From positions 8,075 to 72,074 of the forward strand of contig CALXVQ010000003.1 of the NCBI GenBank assembly GCA_944392135.1: a stretch of DNA of 64,000 nucleotides, read 5' to 3'. The stretch comes from an uncultured Rickettsiales bacterium. Its GTDB lineage: Bacteria > Pseudomonadota > Alphaproteobacteria > Rickettsiales > UBA1997. This document shows positions 7,877 through 17,051 of this stretch, piece after piece (positions within the stretch are counted from its first letter, which is position 1; each line of letters starts with the position of its first letter). The notes beneath the pieces were generated by a model. It was not told where the DNA came from. It saw only the letters and a program-made list of their open reading frames with translations, and ran no database searches. The position numbers and the translations under genes were made by a program.

Positions 7877-8013
7877 TAAAAATAAAAGGTGAAGCAAAAC
7901 TTCACCTAAAAATACTATAATAAAAATAGTAGCCCAAAAGTTAGATAAAGGATGGGCGACCTTACGAATCTCTTCTTATTATAGCAAGCTGTTTTAATTT
8001 CCTATGTTAAAAC
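7877..8013 (-). ncRNA. tracrRNA: tracrRNA (predicted)
   Basis: Minus strand 8013->7979 reads GTTTTAACATAGGAAATTAAAACAGCTTGCTATAA. By hand it pairs with nt 2-36 of the crRNA-sense repeat: 29 Watson-Crick pairs, 2 G:U pairs and 4 mismatches in two internal bulges. It is followed by a tail with hairpins and ends at AGGTGAAG-TTTTG-CTTCACCT plus TTTTATTTTT (7907->7877). The ends are inferred, not mapped. Confidence 0.75.
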
Positions 8014-8019
8014 AATAAG

Positions 8020-8049
8020 ATTATAAAAATATAAATTTCTTAAAGTCAA
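8020..8049 (-). promoter_or_regulatory. Sigma-70-type promoter of the tracrRNA
   Basis: On the minus strand: TTGACT (8049-8044), N18, TATAAT (8025-8020), then 6 nt to the first G of the anti-repeat. Confidence 0.55.
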
Positions 8050-8124
8050 GTCTTTTCAATAAACATATTGCAATTTTTAATAATCTTTTTTATATATAGT
8101 ATATCAATAATATATATAAAACAT

Positions 8125-11100
8125 ATGTTAAAACGAATATTAGGATTAGACTTAGGTATTTCAAGTATCGGTTGGGCAATTACCGAGATTGATGATTTGG
8201 ATTTTGTTAACAATAATGGTGAAGTTTTTCTTAGAAATGGAAAAATTGTTGATTGTGGTGTTAGAATTTTTGATGCTTGCGAACAGCCTGGTAATAAACA
8301 TGAAGCTTCTGCATTACCAAGAAGAAATGCTAGATTAAATAGAAGAAGATTATTTAGAAAGTCAGCTAGATGTAAAAAAATTAGAGAATTATGTGAAAAA
8401 CAATTTAATATTAAAATTGATGATAAATTTTTTAAAAAAACATTAGATAAAAATGATTTTAAAGATGTATGGATTTTAAGAAAAGAAGCATTAGAAAGAA
8501 AATTAAATGAAATAGAATTAAGTAGAGTTTTGTGTCATATAGTAAAGCATAGAGGTTGGGCTAGCAGAAGAAAAAGCGAAGAAAAAGAAGGTGATTCTGG
8601 TAAAATGAAAACTGCTATTGATAAATTAAAACAAGAATTAGGAGATGATAAAACACCTGGTTATTATTATGGAAAATTAAAAGCTGAAAGTTTAAATTAT
8701 GATAATGAAAAAATAATAAACGAACATCAAAATTATGATCATTGTATTGGAAGAAGTCAAAATGAATTTGAAATAAAAAAAATTTTTGAAAAACAGAGAA
8801 AATTTGGTTTTGATAAATTAAATGATGATTTTGAAAATGAAGTTTTAAAATTATTTAATTATGAAAAAGAAACTAAATCAATCAAAGATATGATTGGTTT
8901 TTGTTTATTTGAAAAAGGTGAATTTAGAGCACCAAAAGAATCTTATTCTGCTGAATTATTTAATGTTTATACAAAAATTAATAATTTAAAAGTATTAGAT
9001 ACAAAAGATGTTGATTATGATAAAAAGTTTAATAGTTTAGTGGAATTATTCAAAACTAAAAAAGAAGTAAAATATAAAGATATTAGAAAAGAATTAAAAC
9101 TTGATGATAATTATAAATTTAAAGGTTTAGATTATTATCAAGCTGAATATGTTGAATTTAAAAAAGCTAAAAATTCAACAGAATTAACATTATCTAATAC
9201 AGATAAAAATAATATTGAAAAATATAAATTAGAAGGCTTTTTTATAGAAGAACCAGATAAAGCTAGAAAAGTATTTTTTAAAAATGATAAAGGTGAATAT
9301 AAATATAAAAGCAAAAACGATATAGAAAATGTAAAAATATATTCAATGGTTGGTTATCATAAAGTTAAAGATGTATTAAATGATGAAGAATTTAAAAAAT
9401 ATATAGAAAAGGATAAAGATTCACCATTTATAATAGATACTATAATGGAAGCTTTGTCATATGAAAAAAATGATGAAAAAAGTAAAAAATATATGCAAGA
9501 TCATAATATTCCAGAAGATATTATTGATAAATGTTTAAATATTCAAACTAGTAATTTTATTCATATATCTTGTAAAGCTATTAGAAATTTATTACCATAT
9601 TTAGAAAAAGGTTTAACTTATGATAAAGCTTGTTTAGAGTGCAATTATGAATTTAAAGATGACTCAAAAAACAATCAACAAGATTTTTTGCCTACATTAG
9701 AAGAATATACAAAAGAAAATGATATTGCTAAATTAACAAATCCAGTAGTAAAAAGAACTCTATCACAAACAAGAAAAGTAATAAATGCAATTATTAGAAA
9801 ATATGGAAATTTTGATCAAATAAATATAGAATTCACAAGAGATTTAGGAAAATCTGCTGATGAAAGAATTAAAATTGAAAGAGGGCAAAAAGAATTTAGA
9901 GATTTAAAAGAAGAATTAAAAAAAGAAGCTTCTTTAATATTACATGTAAATGAAGATGTAATAACTGATAAACAAATTTTAAAATTAAGGCTATACAAGC
10001 AACAAGAAGGAAAAAGTTTATATTGTAATCCATTAGAAAAATTACCAGATTTAAAAGAAATTTTAACTGATGATAAATGTTGCGAAATAGATCATATTTT
10101 GCCTTATTCAAAAAGTTTTGATGATTCTTTAAATAATAAAGTTTTAGTTTTACCAAAAGAAAATCAAAACAAACAAAACAGAATACCTTTTGAATATTTA
10201 AAAGATAGCAATTGGGAAGAATGGAAAAAAATTATATGGAGTATACAAAGTTTACCATATATAAAAAGAAAAAATTTAACAACTGAAAGTTATGATTTTG
10301 TAGATAAATGGAAAGCTAGAAATTTATGTGATACAAGTTATATATCAAAATATTTAGTAAAATATTTATCTAAAAGCTTAAAATTTAAAGAAAATGATAA
10401 AATAAAAAATAAAATTCAAGTTAGACCGGGACAATTAACATCTTATTTAAGACATATATGGGGCTTAGGTGAAAAAATTAGAAGTGATGGCGACACACAT
10501 CATGTAGTTGATGCTATTATTATTGCTTGTGCTACTCAATCAATGTGTCAAATGATTTCTGCACTACATGCTACACAAAGAAGTGAAGATGTAAAACAAC
10601 AACAAAAAGAAATTTTTGATAAAATAAATAAATTAAAATCTTTATCAAAAACAAAAGAAATTGAAGAAAAAATTAAAGAATTAGAAGAAGAAAGCAAATG
10701 GTATAATTTAATTGAATCTAGACATATATTAGAAGGGCATTGTAAATTAAATGGTATATGGGAAAATTTTGTAAGTGATGTTACTAAAAAAGTAAACAAT
10801 TTAACAAAAACAAATGAAACAACTGGTTTACCAGAAAACAATCAAAATATTGTTTCACGAATGCCACGAAGAAAAATCACAGGAGAAGCTCATGATGCAA
10901 CAATAAAAGGTTTAGATAAAGTAGAAAATATAACTTATACTAAAACTAAATTATCAAAATTAACATTAAAAAATATAGAAAATTTGCAAGACAAAGATGG
11001 TGCCTCTAAAAATTTATATAATATATTAAAAAATAGATTAGAAGAATTTAATGGAGATGCCGAGAAAGCATTTAAAGAACCTATTTATATGACTAATAAA

Positions 11101-11670
11101 AATGAAGAATATGATGAAAATAAAACTCCACAAATAAAAAGTGTAAAATTAGTTTCTAATTATACAGGTGGTGGAGTTGAAATAAATAATGGTATTGCTC
11201 AAAATGGTGGTATGCCAAGAGTTGATATATTTTACAAAGATAACAAATATTATGCAGTTCCAATTTACATTGCTGATTTTGTAAAAGATGAATTGCCAAT
11301 CTTATCAAAACCACACAATATTGATTTTCCAATTGAAGAAAAAGAAGATGATAAATTTTACAATAAACATTTTGTTTTTAGTTTATATAAAGATGAGTTG
11401 ATTTATTTTAGAACAAAGAAAAACGAACAATATTTTGGTTATTTTTGTTCTTTTGATGCAAGTCAAGCTAATACAATTAAAATAGAATCATTAGATAGAA
11501 GTAAAAAATATTTAGTTGGCAATAAATATGATAAAGAAATTAGGATATCCTTAGGTAGTATAATATCTTTAAAAAAATTTCAAGTAGATCCATTAGGTTA
11601 TATAAACGAAGTAAAACAAGAAAAGCGACAAGGTATAATTGAGAAAAAATGTAAAAAACAAAAAAATTAA
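8125..11670 (+). CDS. cas9: Cas9, type II-C architecture (1181 aa from ATG 8125)
   Basis: RuvC-I ILGLDLGISSIGWAI; Arg-rich bridge helix ALPRRNARLNRRRLFRKSAR; HNH CEIDHILPYSKSFDDSLNNKVLVLPKENQNKQNRIPFEY; RuvC-III THHVVDAIIIACAT. Only cas1 and cas2 follow (no csn2 or cas4), which indicates II-C. The tracked start at 8068 is a TTG that adds 19 hydrophobic residues. Confidence 0.95.
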   Translation: MLKRILGLDLGISSIGWAITEIDDLDFVNNNGEVFLRNGKIVDCGVRIFDACEQPGNKHEASALPRRNARLNRRRLFRKSARCKKIRELCEKQFNIKIDDKFFKKTLDKNDFKDVWILRKEALERKLNEIELSRVLCHIVKHRGWASRRKSEEKEGDSGKMKTAIDKLKQELGDDKTPGYYYGKLKAESLNYDNEKIINEHQNYDHCIGRSQNEFEIKKIFEKQRKFGFDKLNDDFENEVLKLFNYEKETKSIKDMIGFCLFEKGEFRAPKESYSAELFNVYTKINNLKVLDTKDVDYDKKFNSLVELFKTKKEVKYKDIRKELKLDDNYKFKGLDYYQAEYVEFKKAKNSTELTLSNTDKNNIEKYKLEGFFIEEPDKARKVFFKNDKGEYKYKSKNDIENVKIYSMVGYHKVKDVLNDEEFKKYIEKDKDSPFIIDTIMEALSYEKNDEKSKKYMQDHNIPEDIIDKCLNIQTSNFIHISCKAIRNLLPYLEKGLTYDKACLECNYEFKDDSKNNQQDFLPTLEEYTKENDIAKLTNPVVKRTLSQTRKVINAIIRKYGNFDQINIEFTRDLGKSADERIKIERGQKEFRDLKEELKKEASLILHVNEDVITDKQILKLRLYKQQEGKSLYCNPLEKLPDLKEILTDDKCCEIDHILPYSKSFDDSLNNKVLVLPKENQNKQNRIPFEYLKDSNWEEWKKIIWSIQSLPYIKRKNLTTESYDFVDKWKARNLCDTSYISKYLVKYLSKSLKFKENDKIKNKIQVRPGQLTSYLRHIWGLGEKIRSDGDTHHVVDAIIIACATQSMCQMISALHATQRSEDVKQQQKEIFDKINKLKSLSKTKEIEEKIKELEEESKWYNLIESRHILEGHCKLNGIWENFVSDVTKKVNNLTKTNETTGLPENNQNIVSRMPRRKITGEAHDATIKGLDKVENITYTKTKLSKLTLKNIENLQDKDGASKNLYNILKNRLEEFNGDAEKAFKEPIYMTNKNEEYDENKTPQIKSVKLVSNYTGGGVEINNGIAQNGGMPRVDIFYKDNKYYAVPIYIADFVKDELPILSKPHNIDFPIEEKEDDKFYNKHFVFSLYKDELIYFRTKKNEQYFGYFCSFDASQANTIKIESLDRSKKYLVGNKYDKEIRISLGSIISLKKFQVDPLGYINEVKQEKRQGIIEKKCKKQKN

Positions 11671-11678
11671 TTTTTATT

Positions 11679-11703
11679 AGGCACTATTGAGTGCCTTTTT
11701 TAT
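11679..11703 (+). terminator. Hairpin with T-tract between cas9 and cas1
   Basis: AGGCACT-ATTG-AGTGCCT followed by TTTTTTATT, 9 nt after the cas9 stop. Confidence 0.55.
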
Positions 11704-11722
11704 TAATAAATTTTTAATTAAC

Positions 11723-12625
11723 ATGTCTTGGAGAATAATTTTAATTACAAAACCTTGTAAAATATCTTACAAAAATAATCAATTAGTTTATCAACCACAA
11801 GATGAAGAGGAATTGCAAGTTCCATTAGAAGATATAGGGGCTATTGTAATAGATACACCACAAATAAATATTACTGGTTATTTATTATCGGAAATTGCAA
11901 ATAATAAAATTGTTGTTTTAACTACTGATAATTCACATACACCAAATGGAATTTTTTTGCCATATATGCAATATTATAAAAATGCAGAAACTGCCTTCTT
12001 ACAAAGAGATTGGAGTGAAGCTTTTAAAAAAAGATTGTGGCAAAAAATAGTTCAACAAAAAATACAAAATCAAGCATTATGTATAAAAAATATAAATAAT
12101 AATTTATATAAATATTTAATTGGTTTATCAAAAGAGGTTTTATCGGGTGATACATCTAATATTGAAGGAAGAGCAGCAAAAGAATATTGGAAAGTATATT
12201 ATAATAATTTTATAAGACATGATAACACAAAAGTAAATTCTGCTTTGAATTATGTTTATATGATTACTAGAAGTTTAATAGCAAAAAATTTATCCGCATT
12301 AGGTTTTATTACTTGTTTTGGTTTGCATCATTGTAATATGTATAATTCTTTTAATTTAGCCGACGATTTAATAGAACCATTTAGAGGAATTATAGATTTT
12401 AGAGTAAAAAAATTATATGACATTGATGATAAAGATGATACACTTACAATAGAAGACAAACAAAAACTTATAGAAATTATTTTTTATGAAGTTAATTATG
12501 GGGGACAAAATTATAATATGATGTATGCTACACAATTATTAACTGAAAATCTATTAAACATTACAAAAAATAATGAAGCAAAAAATTTTATTTTACCAAC
12601 TTTTCCTAAGGATTTATTATTTTGA
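11723..12625 (+). CDS. cas1: Cas1 integrase
   Basis: 300 aa from ATG 11723 (MSWRIILITKPCKISYKNNQLV...). Cas1 motifs are present: NIEGRAAKEYW, FGLHH, ADDLIEPFR. The tracked TTG start at 11687 lies inside the upstream terminator hairpin. Confidence 0.9.
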   Translation: MSWRIILITKPCKISYKNNQLVYQPQDEEELQVPLEDIGAIVIDTPQINITGYLLSEIANNKIVVLTTDNSHTPNGIFLPYMQYYKNAETAFLQRDWSEAFKKRLWQKIVQQKIQNQALCIKNINNNLYKYLIGLSKEVLSGDTSNIEGRAAKEYWKVYYNNFIRHDNTKVNSALNYVYMITRSLIAKNLSALGFITCFGLHHCNMYNSFNLADDLIEPFRGIIDFRVKKLYDIDDKDDTLTIEDKQKLIEIIFYEVNYGGQNYNMMYATQLLTENLLNITKNNEAKNFILPTFPKDLLF

Positions 12626-12633
12626 GGTATTTT

Positions 12634-12966
12634 ATGGACTATACAAGGGATAAATTTATGAGAATGTTAGTATTTTTTGATTTACCTGTTAAAACAAAAG
12701 AAATGATGAAACAGGCAAATAAATTTAGAAAAGTTTTATTAAATGATGGCTTTCAAATGTTACAATTATCTGTTTATTCTAGAATAATTAGAAATGATTG
12801 TAATGTAGAAACTCACTTGCAAAATATAAAAAAACAAATACCACCACATGGTAGTATAAGAGTTTTAACAGTTACAGAAAAACAATATGCCAGCATGGAA
12901 ATTTTAGTTGGAGAACAAACAAAACAAGAAAAAAAAGTTGGACCTCAACAGCTTTTATTATTTTAA
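12634..12966 (+). CDS. cas2: Cas2
   Basis: ATG 12634 lies 6 nt after GAGG. FMRMLVFFDLPVKTKEMMKQANKFRKVLLNDGFQMLQLSVYSR is the typical type II Cas2 N-terminal ferredoxin fold. The tracked TTG start at 12622 overlaps the cas1 stop. Confidence 0.85.
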   Translation: MDYTRDKFMRMLVFFDLPVKTKEMMKQANKFRKVLLNDGFQMLQLSVYSRIIRNDCNVETHLQNIKKQIPPHGSIRVLTVTEKQYASMEILVGEQTKQEKKVGPQQLLLF

Positions 12967-13020
12967 TAAATCTCAAAAAAATGAAAAAATTTTATAAATT
13001 TTTCTAAAAAATTCTCATTT

Positions 13021-13062
13021 TTTCTTTAAAAAAATACAAAACAAACCCTTTATTATCAAGGG
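13021..13062 (-). terminator. Possible terminator for minus-strand array transcription
   Basis: On the minus strand: CCCTT-GATAATA-AAGGG followed by TTTGTTTTGTATTTTTTT. On the plus strand no T-tract follows the hairpin. The stem is short (5 bp). Confidence 0.35.
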
Positions 13063-13076
13063 CTAAAAAGCTTGCT

Positions 13077-14829
13077 ATTCTAACATAGGAAATTAAAAAC
13101 GCAAGCTATAACAGGCGTTGCCAACGCCTTTACTGGCGGTATATTCTAACATAGGAAATTAAAAACGCAAGCTATAACGTAAAATCATTCAGTAAGTTCA
13201 TCATTTTCATTCTAACATAGGAAATTAAAAACGCAAGCTATAACGATGATATAATAATTTTTCAACAAGCAACAATTCTAACATAGGAAATTAAAAACGC
13301 AAGCTATAACTAGGTTTGTTGTGTTCTGAATACAATCAAGATTCTAACATAGGAAATTAAAAACGCAAGCTATAACTGTTAATTGTTCGTCAATATTGAT
13401 TTTGCCATTCTAACATAGGAAATTAAAAACGCAAGCTATAACAAAAAGCTTTTGTTTTTCTTGTTTGTATAAATTCTAACATAGGAAATTAAAAACGCAA
13501 GCTATAACTTCGGCTTCTCAGTCCTCAAACTCTTCTGTATTCTAACATAGGAAATTAAAAACGCAAGCTATAACAAAAAATGTCTTATAATAAAAATACA
13601 CGAAATTCTAACATAGGAAATTAAAAACGCAAGCTATAACTATACGCGCAAATGACACCACCTTATAAAAATTCTAACATAGGAAATTAAAAACGCAAGC
13701 TATAACGTTATTTCTGCAATCAAATTATTTGCAAAAATTCTAACATAGGAAATTAAAAACGCAAGCTATAACAAGAAAGGAAGAGAATAGTAATGAGGCT
13801 TAATTCTAACATAGGAAATTAAAAACGCAAGCTATAACAGCCGTATTTGACATTTTTTCTTGGAATGCCATTCTAACATAGGAAATTAAAAACGCAAGCT
13901 ATAACAACGAAATTCCTTGAACTTTTGTTGGCAAAATTCTAACATAGGAAATTAAAAACGCAAGCTATAACTGAGGTATTGCTCGTCACCTAGACCGTTT
14001 TATTCTAACATAGGAAATTAAAAACGCAAGCTATAACTGTAAGTCTAACTCGCCCAACTATTGAAAAATTCTAACATAGGAAATTAAAAACGCAAGCTAT
14101 AACCGCGGTTGTGTTGATTTTAAAGGTATCTCCATTCTAACATAGGAAATTAAAAACGCAAGCTATAACCGCGGTTGTGTTGATTTTAAAGGTATCTCCA
14201 TTCTAACATAGGAAATTAAAAACGCAAGCTATAACTAGATTTATATTCAGCCCATTCTTTTACAGATTCTAACATAGGAAATTAAAAACGCAAGCTATAA
14301 CTGAATCAAATAAACCCATAAGCAACTCCTTATTCTAACATAGGAAATTAAAAACGCAAGCTATAACTTGGCAGTATGGCATTGTCGATGTAGGTTAATT
14401 CTAACATAGGAAATTAAAAACGCAAGCTATAACCGGTTATAAAGGTAAGATATCTGCTCTCCAATTCTAACATAGGAAATTAAAAACGCAAGCTATAACC
14501 GGTTATAAAGGTAAGATATCTGCTCTCCAATTCTAACATAGGAAATTAAAAACGCAAGCTATAACAAATAAGAATCTTTATAACTTTTATTTTCTATTCT
14601 AACATAGGAAATTAAAAACGCAAGCTATAACAGATACGACAACCGACACTTCTATCCCATTATTCTAACATAGGAAATTAAAAACGCAAGCTATAACAGG
14701 ACTACAAAACTATAAGACAGAGCAAAAATTCTAACATAGGAAATTAAAAACGCAAGCTATAACAATTAAAAAAATTAATAAAATTATTAAAATATTCTAA
14801 CATAGGAAATTAAAAACGCAAGCTATAAC
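13077..14829 (-). CRISPR. Type II-C CRISPR array, 27 repeats and 26 spacers
   Basis: There are 27 identical 36-nt repeats. Plus strand: ATTCTAACATAGGAAATTAAAAACGCAAGCTATAAC. crRNA sense (minus strand): GTTATAGCTTGCGTTTTTAATTTCCTATGTTAGAAT. Spacers are 30 nt (spacer 12 is 31 nt), giving a 66-nt period. The first repeat is 13077-13112 and the last is 14794-14829. Orientation rests on the GTT... start, tracrRNA complementarity and the extended -10 TGTTAGAAT at the repeat 3' end. Confidence 0.97.
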
Positions 14830-14832
14830 ATC

Positions 14833-14926
14833 TTGCCTTTTCTGCCCATATAGAACAAAACATTTATTAGTAAGTTTGTTGCAAATATTTTATTGAGTTT
14901 TTGTTCTATATGGGCAGAAAAGGCAA
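14833..14926. repeat. Perfect 28-bp inverted repeat with a 38-nt loop
   Basis: 14833-14860 is TTGCCTTTTCTGCCCATATAGAACAAAA. 14899-14926 is its exact reverse complement, TTTTGTTCTATATGGGCAGAAAAGGCAA. Confidence 0.9.
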
Positions 14927-14961
14927 TTTTAGCGAATCTATTTTTATAGTCAAGCTATAAC
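14926..14961 (-). repeat. psiR1: divergent 36-nt CRISPR-repeat-like element
   Basis: Minus strand: GTTATAGCTTGACTATAAAAATAGATTCGCTAAAAT. It has the same length as the canonical repeat and 23/36 identity by eye, with both termini conserved. It is identical to psiR2. Confidence 0.85.
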
Positions 14962-15218
14962 TTCGCATCTAGATAATCAAAAGGGCCATCTATAATAGCA
15001 TCTATAAACATCTCTTTTGCTCTCTCTTCAACTTCATCTTCATTTTTTATATATGAATTATCTGCTAATATTAAGCCTGTGTCTGGGTGTCTTACATAAT
15101 CCTCAACTACTATACCTACTTCTTTAGCAGCATCTTCTTCAAAACTATCTCTATAATCCTCCCAAACTTCTTTAATATACTCATCTAAACTAGATGTCTT
15201 CTCTTTATTATTACTCAT
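14955..15218 (-). CDS. Hypothetical small, strongly acidic protein (87 aa; 25 D/E versus 10 K/R)
   Basis: Tracked ORF. Its TAG stop is the TAG inside the GTTATAG of psiR1. I recognise no domain. Confidence 0.5.
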   Translation of the reverse strand: MSNNKEKTSSLDEYIKEVWEDYRDSFEEDAAKEVGIVVEDYVRHPDTGLILADNSYIKNEDEVEERAKEMFIDAIIDGPFDYLDAKL

Positions 15219-15227
15219 ATTTTCTCC

Positions 15228-15599
15228 TTAAATCATTCTAACTATATTAATATTAAAAATTATTATTAAATAACCTAACATTCCTATTAATAAAAAAAAA
15301 CTAACTATAAACTTAACTATTTTAAATCCTAAAGTTTTTTCTATATCTATATCTTCATATATAATTTCACTTTTAGGACAATAAAAACTAAAATCTGTTC
15401 TAGGTTTAAAATATTCTGTTATATCTAATGTTTCTATATCCACACCAGTTTCATTCCAAAACTTAAATACCTTAATATTATCACTCTTTATATCTTCTAT
15501 ATCTTTAAGAGTACTAATATTATTTTTCTTAAAATATTGGACTACTTGTTGTAATGTTTTACTCTGGTGTCCTTTAATTTCTAATCCGTTATATATCAT
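15228..15599 (-). CDS. Hypothetical protein with a C-terminal transmembrane anchor (123 aa)
   Basis: Tracked ORF with a C-terminal hydrophobic helix, FKIVKFIVSFFLLIGMLGYLIIIFNI. It lies 9 nt upstream of the acidic ORF on the same strand. Its ATG overlaps (ATGA) the end of a start-less 43-codon frame that begins inside psiR2. Confidence 0.5.
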   Translation of the reverse strand: MIYNGLEIKGHQSKTLQQVVQYFKKNNISTLKDIEDIKSDNIKVFKFWNETGVDIETLDITEYFKPRTDFSFYCPKSEIIYEDIDIEKTLGFKIVKFIVSFFLLIGMLGYLIIIFNINIVRMI

Positions 15600-15698
15600 T
15601 CTTCTACCATTTTTAATGCTTCTAGTATAGCTTCTTTTTGTATACTTAAAGCTAAATCTCTAAATTTTCTCTTAACTTCACTAGGAACTTCACTTTCT

Positions 15699-15734
15699 AT
15701 TTTAGCGAATCTATTTTTATAGTCAAGCTATAAC
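15699..15734 (-). repeat. psiR2: divergent 36-nt CRISPR-repeat-like element
   Basis: 36/36 identical to psiR1, with unrelated flanks on both sides. Confidence 0.85.
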
Positions 15735-16154
15735 TGCTGAAAGCCAACACTTTCTGAACTTTATTAATAAGTTTCTTGTACATATTTGTTAAAGTATAGC
15801 AATGTTAAAGCTATATAGACTTAATATTTTAAATTTATTTACTTTTAAAAATATTATTATATAATGTAAATGTAAGGTTTGTAGAGGAACGAGCTTTGCC
15901 TCCTAGTGCCTGTCTACATAGTAATTATTAATTAGTAGTGTAACCTTTAATAGCCTTACATCTAATAATCATAATAAGCTGTAATTACTAATTGTATTTT
16001 TAAATTCTTAAAATTTGGTTCTACAACAGCAGTTTTACCTTTATACCTTAATTTTAAAGCATTGCCATTTTCTTCAATTTTATCTTTTTAATAGTGTCTG
16101 TTAAATCATCAAAAATTTTTCAATGGTTATTTTATTTCTTTCTTGTATCTATTA

Positions 16155-16189
16155 ATTTTAGCGAATCTATTTTTATAGTGGACTATAAC
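16155..16189 (-). repeat. psiR3: divergent CRISPR-repeat-like element (35 nt)
   Basis: Minus strand: GTTATAGTCCACTATAAAAATAGATTCGCTAAAAT. It differs from psiR1/2 only in the centre of the TTATAG-N-CTATAA hairpin (CTTGA becomes TCCA), so the stem is preserved. Confidence 0.8.
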
Positions 16190-16407
16190 TTATCATTGTC
16201 TTCGTTATGATCTTCCATATTATTTAAAATATCTTCATAATCTTCTGGTGTGAATTTTGTATCAAATTCGTCAACTAGTTCAGGCAAACTATCATGAAAT
16301 AGTTTATCATTTGATTATGTATCATTAATATCTTCTGGTAATGAATCTATTATATTATCATTGGTTAAAATATTATTATCTTTTTCTAAATCTTTTTTAT
16401 TTTCCAT
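16183..16407 (-). pseudogene. Second acidic small ORF, interrupted by an in-frame TAA (16315-16317)
   Basis: Hand translation gives MENKKDLEKDNNILTNDNIIDSLPEDINDT*SNDKLFHDSLPELVDEFDTKFTPEDYEDILNNMEDHNEDNDKL*. As with the 87-aa ORF, it ends ...KL on the TAG inside psiR3. Confidence 0.3.
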
Positions 16408-16535
16408 ATTTTTATGTGTTAATTTATATATTTATATTGTAAATATTTATTTATTATTTGTCTAGTTTTTTTTATTAAAATAAGAAATTTATGATATGTT
16501 TATCATTAATAAATGTAATTATAATTATTTAAATA

Positions 16536-17051
16536 TTAATTATCCATTTTAATAATATCAAAATCAAAATATTCTTCATTGGTTTCAGCATATTTGGTGT
16601 AAGAACAACAATTCATTTCTTTTTGTAATTCTTCTGGAAATATAAATCTTGCAAAGCCATTTTCATAATGTTCTTTTGCCTTTTGTAGTGTTTTATAATG
16701 GCAATGTGTAAATATATTTTGTATAAATAATTCTTTGTCTTGTTTAATAATTAAGTCAACTTCGTGTTTTAAAAAAATAGTTGATGTAAGGCCTTCGAAT
16801 ATATTGCTTTTTTTATTGAAATAAAATTCTATTTGAAAGGCAAAATTATATTTATTGTAAATAAAAATAAATCTATATTTATTATATTGTTTTATATTCT
16901 GTTTTTCTATTTTTTTTAAAGAATTTATAATATCTTTTAAAAAGGAATAATACTTTTCTGTATTAGTACTTATTTTTGTAGTGAATCTTTGTAATGAATG
17001 ACTAATATCATAAATTAAAAAACTATTATATTTTAAAATTAAATGTCTCAT
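16536..17051 (-). CDS. Hypothetical protein (171 aa)
   Basis: Tracked ORF on the same strand as the array and the psiR cassettes. No motif recognised. Confidence 0.45.
   Translation of the reverse strand: MRHLILKYNSFLIYDISHSLQRFTTKISTNTEKYYSFLKDIINSLKKIEKQNIKQYNKYRFIFIYNKYNFAFQIEFYFNKKSNIFEGLTSTIFLKHEVDLIIKQDKELFIQNIFTHCHYKTLQKAKEHYENGFARFIFPEELQKEMNCCSYTKYAETNEEYFDFDIIKMDN

Follow-up and report, generated by a model that had tools for sequence, protein, structure and literature searches.

We found that a clustered regularly interspaced short palindromic repeat (CRISPR) array in an uncultured Rickettsiales bacterium (contig CALXVQ010000003.1 of assembly GCA_944392135.1) begins, in the direction of transcription, with a long perfect palindrome placed directly over the guide of its first CRISPR RNA (crRNA). 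The stretch analyzed is 64,000 nucleotides (nt) long and is called the window; related loci are numbered L001–L035. With moderate confidence, we interpret the palindrome as a hairpin predicted to mask the guide of the first crRNA, a non-immune one, in a type II-C array and to insulate that array. By analogy, it is most likely a far longer and structurally odd form of a device described in 2025. The features on which this interpretation is built are as follows, in window positions.

13077–14829, minus strand: CRISPR array in which 27 repeats alternate with spacers of 30 nt, giving a period of 66 nt; the repeat is GTTATAGCTTGCGTTTTTAATTTCCTATGTTAGAAT on the crRNA strand.
14794–14829, minus strand: first repeat in the transcription direction that can pair with the trans-activating crRNA (tracrRNA), the "extra" repeat in the sense of PMC12080349.
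14830–14832, minus strand: GAT (crRNA strand), three nucleotides left unpaired where the 3' arm gives way to the repeat.
14833–14860, minus strand: 3' hairpin arm, which reads TTTTGTTCTATATGGGCAGAAAAGGCAA in crRNA sense and is the would-be guide (positions -3 to -30 of the first repeat).
14861–14898, no strand assigned: 38-nt loop, present as its exact reverse complement in L026, L027, L029, L033 and L034.
14899–14926, minus strand: 5' hairpin arm, which reads TTGCCTTTTCTGCCCATATAGAACAAAA in crRNA sense and begins with the T that ends the psiR1 -10 element.
14926–14961, minus strand: psiR1, an old repeat variant (GTTATAGCTTGACTATAAAAATAGATTCGCTAAAAT) with 23/36 positions identical to the canonical repeat.

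The arms (14833–14860 and 14899–14926) were complementary at 28/28 positions and separated by 38 nt. No third site for the arm 28-mer occurred in the 64-kb window (0 expected), and the arm pair was the sole long perfect inverted repeat there. Folding energy was about -58 to -59 kcal/mol on either strand, with a z score of about -8.2. The last canonical repeat occupies 14794–14829 and psiR1 14926–14961, so the original prediction was right that the first G of psiR1 and the first G of that repeat (on the crRNA strand) are 132 nt apart, which is 2 x 66 and in phase with the array, and that the two spacer slots carry a sequence and its own perfect reverse complement (28 nt, 100% complementary). 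It had also described all three nucleotides next to the repeat, GAT, as facing TTT. The facing itself is found at 14832–14830, but the final T matches, and only two of the three positions are mismatched. An Rfam search with the hairpin returned nothing above threshold, and sub-threshold matches resembling microRNA precursors merely reflect its length. Independent assemblies contained identical copies of the palindrome (L003–L006, L023/L024, L026, L027, L029, L033 and L034) and variant copies (L031 and L032), which shows that it is not an assembly artefact.

It has been reported that new spacers enter type II-C arrays beside the repeat that is transcribed last, which leaves the one transcribed first as the oldest, "extra" repeat (Feussner et al. 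2025, PMC12080349), and that the sequence upstream of the extra repeat yields an "extraneous" crRNA (ecrRNA) unless this is prevented (PMC12080349). In the mechanism that we propose, the stem-loop module would fill the 96-nt slot between the last fossil psiR and the first tracrRNA-pairing repeat. Because a type II guide sits upstream of its repeat, the 30 nt before that repeat would be loaded into Cas9 as such an ecrRNA, with a guide of no invader origin. Twenty-seven of these 30 guide nucleotides would be held in the 3' arm of the perfect 28-bp helix, the 5' arm lying 38 nt upstream in the same transcript. Whether RNA starts at the psiR1 promoter or reads through from upstream genes, in silico folding places the guide in a duplex of 21–28 bp, and a duplexed guide should be barred from use by Cas9. 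The stem is probably also a substrate of RNase III and a shield of the array against transcription from outside, and Cas9 would thereby be left free for the genuine crRNAs promoted from the repeats. Inversion of the loop, at least once between strains, would be a by-product of the long perfect inverted repeat. A transcriptional insulator between the upstream cassettes and the array had been one of the roles originally suggested; this comes close to the explanation favored here.

Folding predictions are consistent with this mechanism. In silico, the stem had 21 bp when transcription began about 7 nt past the psiR1 -10 and 28 bp in a read-through transcript, which bears out the proposal that the first crRNA's guide would end up in a hairpin in RNA from the psiR1 -10. 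Mean pairing probability over the 25-nt guide was 0.87, compared with 0.44–0.67 in relatives without the palindrome. The helix covers the approximately 25 nt immediately upstream of the extra repeat (the 3' arm spans -3 to -30), which is the arrangement of the published ecrRNA hairpins, and transcription is predicted to enter both from same-strand open reading frames (ORFs) upstream of the array and from the psiR1 promoter-like site, whose predicted start near 14919 falls within the 5' arm. The stem is followed by GATGTTATAG on the crRNA strand, with no T-run, and by TTTTAG only on the plus strand; a terminator scan found nothing at the palindrome, and the element does not have the form of a Rho-independent terminator.

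The placement of the palindrome at the first crRNA depends on the type and orientation of the locus, for which three further features matter.

7880–8018, minus strand: candidate tracrRNA, with an anti-repeat followed by stem-loops and a T-run (repeat-similarity scan and sequence reading).
8068–12966, plus strand: cas9 (8068–11670), cas1 (11687–12625) and cas2 (12622–12966), identified as ORFs.
12967–13076, no strand assigned: cas2-side flank of the array, leader-like, ending in ...TAAAAAGCTTGCT next to the repeat (alignment A1 and terminator scan).

The locus is of type II-C, as it consists of cas9-cas1-cas2 and a tracrRNA with an anti-repeat, and neither csn2 nor cas4 was found among its ORFs. 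In L003, the same genes carried the Pfam marks HNH_4/RuvC_III, Cas_Cas1 and CRISPR_Cas2. The tracrRNA candidate, which matched no Rfam family, is divergent from cas9 and has a promoter, TTGACT-17-TATAAT, directly upstream (8019–8048). Its anti-repeat lies at about 7975–8012 on the minus strand, and its predicted duplex with the canonical repeat has an energy of -38.4 kcal/mol. The minus strand is taken as the crRNA strand because of this anti-repeat and because the protospacer-adjacent motif (PAM, see below) lies 3' of the protospacers. On that strand each canonical repeat terminates in TGTTAGAAT, read from the sequence as an extended -10 and thus a predicted repeat promoter. Alignment A1, of the cas2-side flank in the window, L001, L019, L016 and L014, identified this flank, which contains a terminator-like hairpin at 13044–13064 (terminator scan), as the conserved one, down to relatives with 79–82% Cas1 identity. 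This agrees with the published polarity and therefore places the palindrome at the old, transcription-start, cas-distal end. Polarity was not derivable from shared spacers, since only one spacer is common to the arrays.

Several of the properties found here are those of the guide-sequestering hairpins already described. The three devices described against ecrRNA include a mutated extra repeat that keeps its promoter and an upstream terminator, and type II-C systems show an enrichment of helices in which the ecrRNA guide pairs with sequence upstream of it; the case tested is that of C. jejuni NCTC 11168, whose helix blocks targeting in cell-free transcription-translation (TXTL) (Feussner, Migur et al., Microlife 2025, PMC12080349). 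Like those hairpins, the palindrome belongs to a type II-C array with (here predicted) repeat promoters, joins the approximately 25 nt before the first transcribed repeat to sequence further upstream, and coexists with a mutated, promoter-keeping extra repeat; its expected effect would likewise be a guide that Cas9 does not use. Unlike the published helices, which have 8–12 bp, are bulged and in some cases double as terminators, it is 28 bp long and perfect, with a 38-nt loop and no T-run. Also unlike them, it follows a fossil repeat with a near-consensus promoter, is two periods long and has its loop inverted between strains. The leader-repeat hairpin of type II-A arrays (Liao et al. 2022, as summarized in PMC12080349) is similar in being an RNA structure at the array head that suppresses an extraneous crRNA; according to that summary, the type II-A leader pairs with the first repeat at the acquisition end, whereas the stem described here lies at the oldest end and encloses the guide instead of the repeat. 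Only the read-through fold contained a possible additional helix, joining the 5' end of psiR1 to the first repeat.

Comparison of strains showed that the module is a stable part of the locus. Relatives were gathered via identical Cas2 and ORF87 proteins (ORF87 is described below) and belong to the same species-level population, with cas1-cas2 DNA identity of 96.5–100% across assemblies. The 96-nt slot was present in nine variants (the window type, L023/L024, L026, L027, L029, L031, L032, L033 and L034), with constant length and, in every case, flanked by the last psiR on one side and the first canonical repeat on the other. The arrays of these strains had one spacer in common and otherwise differed in all spacers; the slot therefore belongs to the fixed framework of the locus and does not represent two old spacers. 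Across the nine variants 100% of alignment cells were paired, with one compensatory pair and one G·U. In L032, 3/56 arm nucleotides were changed, all of them pair-preserving, compared with 8/38 in the loop (Fisher p 0.045); the arm changes comprised one C:G to U:A and one A:U to G:U, the latter pairing on the crRNA strand only. These changes are weak evidence, from sequence, that the stem on the crRNA strand may be the conserved part. Relatives lacked the slot in three different ways: L001 has a deletion reaching into the adjacent phage fragment, L025 has psiR-30-psiR-25-R at the same place, and L019/L030 have neither psiR nor palindrome.

These data also bear on a neutral origin, in which an inverted duplication or template switch arose at the old array end and recombination between the arms keeps them perfect and flips the loop. 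The perfect arms, the loop found in both orientations, the existence of relatives without the palindrome and the statistical weakness of the covariation all fit such an origin, and chloroplast minute inversions of similar size are common and apparently neutral (PMC2903610). What speaks against it is that position and length are the same in nine strain variants despite complete turnover of the array, that the L032 arms are less diverged than the loop, and that the one-sided change gives a G·U on the crRNA strand only; besides, even if the origin were neutral, folding of the guide would follow physically whenever the region is transcribed. We regard a purely neutral feature as unlikely, though it deserves to be taken seriously.

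Several points weigh against guide masking itself. Promoter, transcription start and folding are predictions throughout. RNA initiated at psiR1 leaves 9–10 PAM-proximal guide nucleotides outside the main stem, and the 28-bp stem with its 38-nt loop far exceeds the published 8–12-bp helices. Guide masking leaves the exact two-period length without explanation, and several close relatives (L001, L025 and L019/L030) lack the hairpin. The covariation comes from one diverged sequence and was not significant in a shuffle control (117/500 shuffles reached the score), while concerted evolution of the arms by recombination would likewise preserve complementarity. The identity of the window and L023 hairpins is uninformative on selection because the flanks are equally identical; an argument for selection from this 100% identity was withdrawn, as the host-derived flanks are themselves 96–100% identical.

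The loop occurs in orientation A in the window, L023 and L032 and in orientation B in L026, L027, L029, L031, L033 and L034, the L031 copy carrying two substitutions. All assemblies of the window strain type (the window, L003–L006 and L028) showed a single orientation. Since the same pipelines yield both orientations, in different samples, and the strain-type assemblies agree with one another, an assembly artefact is unlikely. Scanning of both orientations detected no sigma-70-like promoter in the loop. The loop had no similarity to the canonical repeat or psiR either way round, which rules it out as a decayed repeat and upholds the earlier description of the middle repeat slot as holding an unrelated sequence of about 38 nt.

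Both natural orientations between perfect 28-bp inverted repeats are what would be expected of a phase-variable invertible switch (inverton), in which loop orientation alters expression of the array or of a neighboring gene. Nevertheless, a loop of 38 bp is very short for inversion by a recombinase, neither orientation contains a sigma-70-like promoter, all assemblies of the window strain type have the same orientation, and no invertase or recombinase gene is found in the neighborhood. A dedicated switch is thus very improbable. Flipping of a loop between inverted repeats of comparable size is well known from chloroplast spacers, and the closest parallel for the inversion is the minute inversion of chloroplast hairpins in non-coding DNA, with a 25–27-bp loop and 18-bp arms (Kelchner and Wendel 1996; Whitlock et al. 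2010, PMC2903610). As in chloroplasts, a short loop (38 bp here) exists in both orientations among close relatives and the hairpin lies in a transcript-end region; unlike them, the present case concerns the boundary of a CRISPR array on a bacterial chromosome. The locus shows that loops enclosed by long perfect inverted repeats at array boundaries invert, which matters for assembly and for annotation of array orientation.

A homologue of the loop had been noticed beyond psiR2 and proved to be real: the paralogue X' at 15758–15797 was 27/32 identical with one gap, and 1/2000 shuffles scored as high (p about 0.0005). Together with neighboring sequence it may represent an older copy of the module.

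15735–15830, minus strand: what may be a second, decayed hairpin module on the upstream side of psiR2, X' followed by GTTCAGAAAG; the loop matches, and arm remnants are recognized by eye only.

This copy-like sequence precedes a repeat unable to pair with tracrRNA, and it is decayed, a further point in favor of guide masking. An apparent inversion between L019 and the window at about 15821–15855 was discarded, as the match was a recurrent AT-rich motif present at several places.

The original prediction also proposed that the first crRNA might be a regulatory guide, with Cas9 binding but not cutting the other arm at the psiR1 promoter, as in the autoregulatory guide-target pairs of tracr-L or CreA. 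There is a 27-nt match between guide and target, the guide differs from real spacers in being conserved from strain to strain, and the target is situated where the psiR1 transcript begins. Also, tracr-L, small CRISPR-Cas-associated RNA (scaRNA) and CreA/CreR are repeat-associated guides with a partial match to a site in their own locus, next to degenerate "psi" repeats, and the present element resembles them in having a repeat-associated guide, partial complementarity within the locus and psi repeats nearby. To evaluate the self-site, we used 16 different spacers from the arrays of the window, L001, L027 and L033 that had protospacers in the phage-like contigs L020–L022 with 0–4 mismatches. 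Their 3' flanks defined the PAM as N4CAA, with C at position 5 in 13/16, A at position 6 in 12/16, A at position 7 in 12/16 and T at position 4 in 12/16. A search of cultured phages with all spacers gave no genuine match. The flank of the self-site beside the 5' arm is TAGCGAA (TAGCGAATCT), that is N4GAA, with G instead of C at position 5, and it is not a valid PAM. Moreover, the guide 3' end GAT faces TTT in the target, leaving PAM-proximal positions 2–3 (GA vs TT) mismatched within the seed. Cas9 binding is least tolerant of mismatches at PAM-proximal positions, and known Cas9 autoregulators have the opposite geometry, with PAM-proximal pairing beside a valid PAM. The guide would itself be sequestered in the hairpin, and the three nucleotides adjoining the repeat vary, being GAT in the window and GAG in L032. 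On these grounds, the guide-target proposal fails, and we consider autoregulation of this kind highly improbable.

The possibility that the palindrome is a miniature inverted-repeat transposable element (MITE) or another mobile palindromic element, or else a pair of spacers acquired in opposite orientations from one protospacer, was evaluated by searching the window, all fetched loci, IMG/VR, a phage collection and a plasmid collection with the 28-mer and the 94-bp unit. Its 28-bp terminal inverted repeats, in phase with the array period, would suit either origin, and an element of about 94 bp that has such ends and occurs in a Rickettsiales-like genome recalls MITEs and the Rickettsia-type palindromic elements. 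Unlike these, it is single-copy and fixed in position, and the available sequence showed neither a target-site duplication nor dispersed relatives: the 64 kb contain a single copy, L001–L035 have no copy elsewhere, the site is always the same, and the flanks are ATC and TTT. The phage and plasmid collections had no match. One IMG/VR contig, L009, matched an arm over 23 nt; the match misses the 7 PAM-proximal nucleotides, and among control spacers one of five gave a similar chance 20-mer match and four gave none. This unrelated viral contig (GC 45%) was not counted as evidence, given the control-spacer results. For a spacer pair, the middle slot should be a repeat and is not, and the slot is invariant while true spacers differ. 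The MITE proposal therefore found no second copy to support it in the window or related loci, and this whole group of explanations is the least probable of those considered.

The fossil repeats next to the hairpin provide its predicted promoter. Besides psiR1, two further copies are present.

15699–15734, minus strand: psiR2, same sequence as psiR1, with a promoter-like site at 15726–15699.
16155–16190, minus strand: psiR3, a more diverged copy.

The psiR1 promoter-like site, TTGACT-16-TAAAAT, has 10/12 matches, with the -35 at 14953–14948 and the -10 at 14931–14926. The predicted tracrRNA duplex is -10.4 kcal/mol for psiR vs -38.4 kcal/mol for the canonical repeat. Repeats of the psiR type are spaced by normal 30-nt spacers in L001 and L025, and L016, a related system with 79% Cas1 identity, has a psiR-like element at the array end with the ATTCGCTAAAAT terminus kept. 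Because of these 30-nt-spaced copies, the conserved L016 end, the loss of the duplex and the promoter, psiR is best modeled as an old repeat class, lost as a repeat and by prediction still a promoter. It thus appears to behave as a mutated extra repeat with its promoter retained, apparently even improved. A 20-mer of psiR gave two chance matches only, in unrelated genes, among metagenome contigs. The idea that psiR is coding sequence of a ribbon-helix-helix (RHH)-type antitoxin was rejected, because the L001 frame differs by 2 nt and the downstream ORF piece is a phage gene 3' end. In L016 (14641–14746), the first transcribed canonical repeat begins with T, not G, and is preceded by a 30-nt sequence with its own 6–8-bp hairpin (GAAAAT..ATTTTC) and by the psiR-like element.

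The genes upstream of psiR1 suggest another role, a hairpin at the 3' end of genes running toward the array (a terminator, processing site or stabilizer), which could also insulate against read-through. In the window, the genes concerned would be the phage-derived ORF123-ORF87; the simplest strains have a 74-amino-acid (aa) acidic ORF in this place. The simplest strains, L026 and L031, have the order 74-aa ORF, psiR, hairpin, array; a psiR3-type copy stands directly before the hairpin, the ORF stop lies inside psiR, and the hairpin follows that stop by about 30 nt. In the window, the ORF87 stop precedes the hairpin. Upstream terminators are one published type II-C strategy (PMC12080349), and the hairpin-less L019/L030 carry a stem and T-run about 85 nt upstream of the array. 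Nevertheless, no T-run follows the crRNA-strand stem (GATGTTATAG) and the terminator scan found nothing there. The psiR1 promoter lies between the genes and the hairpin, so that transcription restarts there, and the abutment of the 3' arm on the repeat would be left without a reason. We consider a 3'-end function distinctly improbable. The L019/L030 structure (L019 10604–10740, L030 7983–8112) consists of GAGAGTTGT, a 27-nt loop, ACAACTCTC and then TTTTGATATT; it looks terminator-like and was missed by the simple scan because of the long loop.

Guide masking, the interpretation we prefer, would make this locus useful beyond itself. Silencing of ecrRNA in type II-C was proposed only in 2025, from a weak enrichment of short helices and one tested case, and the present locus would be a natural, conserved and very strong example, with a perfect 28-bp stem exactly over the guide and downstream of a fossil, promoter-bearing repeat. 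As the same population holds hairpin-less and loop-inverted strains, matched natural variants make the idea directly testable, and the PAM N4CAA, the tracrRNA and the phage targets are the parts needed for an assay.

The segment between psiR2 and psiR1 is occupied by foreign DNA.

14962–15698, minus strand: phage-derived fragment exactly between psiR2 and psiR1, 79–82% identical to the phage-like contigs L020–L022.
Content of this fragment, minus strand: the 3' end of an upstream gene, ORF123 (15599–15228) and a 3'-truncated ORF87 (15218–14955).

Alignment of window 15704–14965 with L020–L022 gave the 79–82% identity. In the phage-like contigs the gene order is a 120-aa gene, the ORF87 homologue, DUF7307 and DNA ligase, with a dUTPase also in L020; full-length ORF87 homologues have 91–134 aa. 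No psiR-like sequence was found in the fetched stretches of L020–L022, and the proteins of the "cassette" had no matches in Pfam or PADLOC. Judged by this similarity, the "cassette" between the identical psiR2 and psiR1 is phage DNA in a spacer slot. The original prediction had not included this phage origin, nor the location of the palindrome at the oldest end of a type II-C array, where transcription starts, nor the inverted loop of other strains. Its array-side end shows four truncation points, at about codon 85, 57, 4 or 48 of ORF87 (junctions at window 14961/14962, L023 5171/5172, L025 3205/3206, in L027, and at L001 17797/17798), and every truncation is joined precisely to nt 1 of psiR or of a canonical repeat. 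No microhomology was visible by eye at these junctions.

One could imagine from this pattern that the old array end is a site where an activity specific for repeat boundaries inserts and trims long foreign DNA, for which Cas1-Cas2 may be the obvious candidate. This conjecture arises because a 0.5–0.9-kb phage fragment, a 420-nt segment and the 96-nt palindrome exactly fill inter-psiR slots, and because the flanking psiR copies are identical and four truncations meet repeat nt 1. If it were true, the palindrome would be the footprint of fold-back (hairpin) DNA captured as a spacer, and loop inversion could serve as a heritable switch. We consider it a long shot.

Identity between the window and L023 was mosaic, with 96–100% in host-derived parts, 50–80% in the 3' half of ORF123 (window 15200–15500) and 80–85% in the acidic ORF, which suggests, at the level of sequence, exchange with phage DNA. 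The acidic small ORF (about 16200–16416, minus strand) has its stop TAG inside psiR3; an in-frame TAA interrupts the window copy, and the ORF is intact (74 aa) in L023, L026, L027, L029 and L031. Within the 420-nt psiR3-psiR2 segment, window 15860–15975 had no Rfam match; it is richer in G+C, its minus-strand fold beats shuffles (z -3.0), and promoter-like sites adjoin it on both strands. L025 has a 30-nt spacer there instead. Two pairs of identical adjacent spacers were observed in the window array (14104–14133 and 14170–14199; 14434–14463 and 14500–14529). Among loci with an identical Cas2 protein, Cas9 length was 1177–1183 aa vs 1322–1332 aa (L026 and L032 vs other loci). Finally, an L001 spacer (16610–16639) matched the 5' end of cas1 (window 11694–11716) over 23 nt, with the 7 PAM-proximal nucleotides mismatched.

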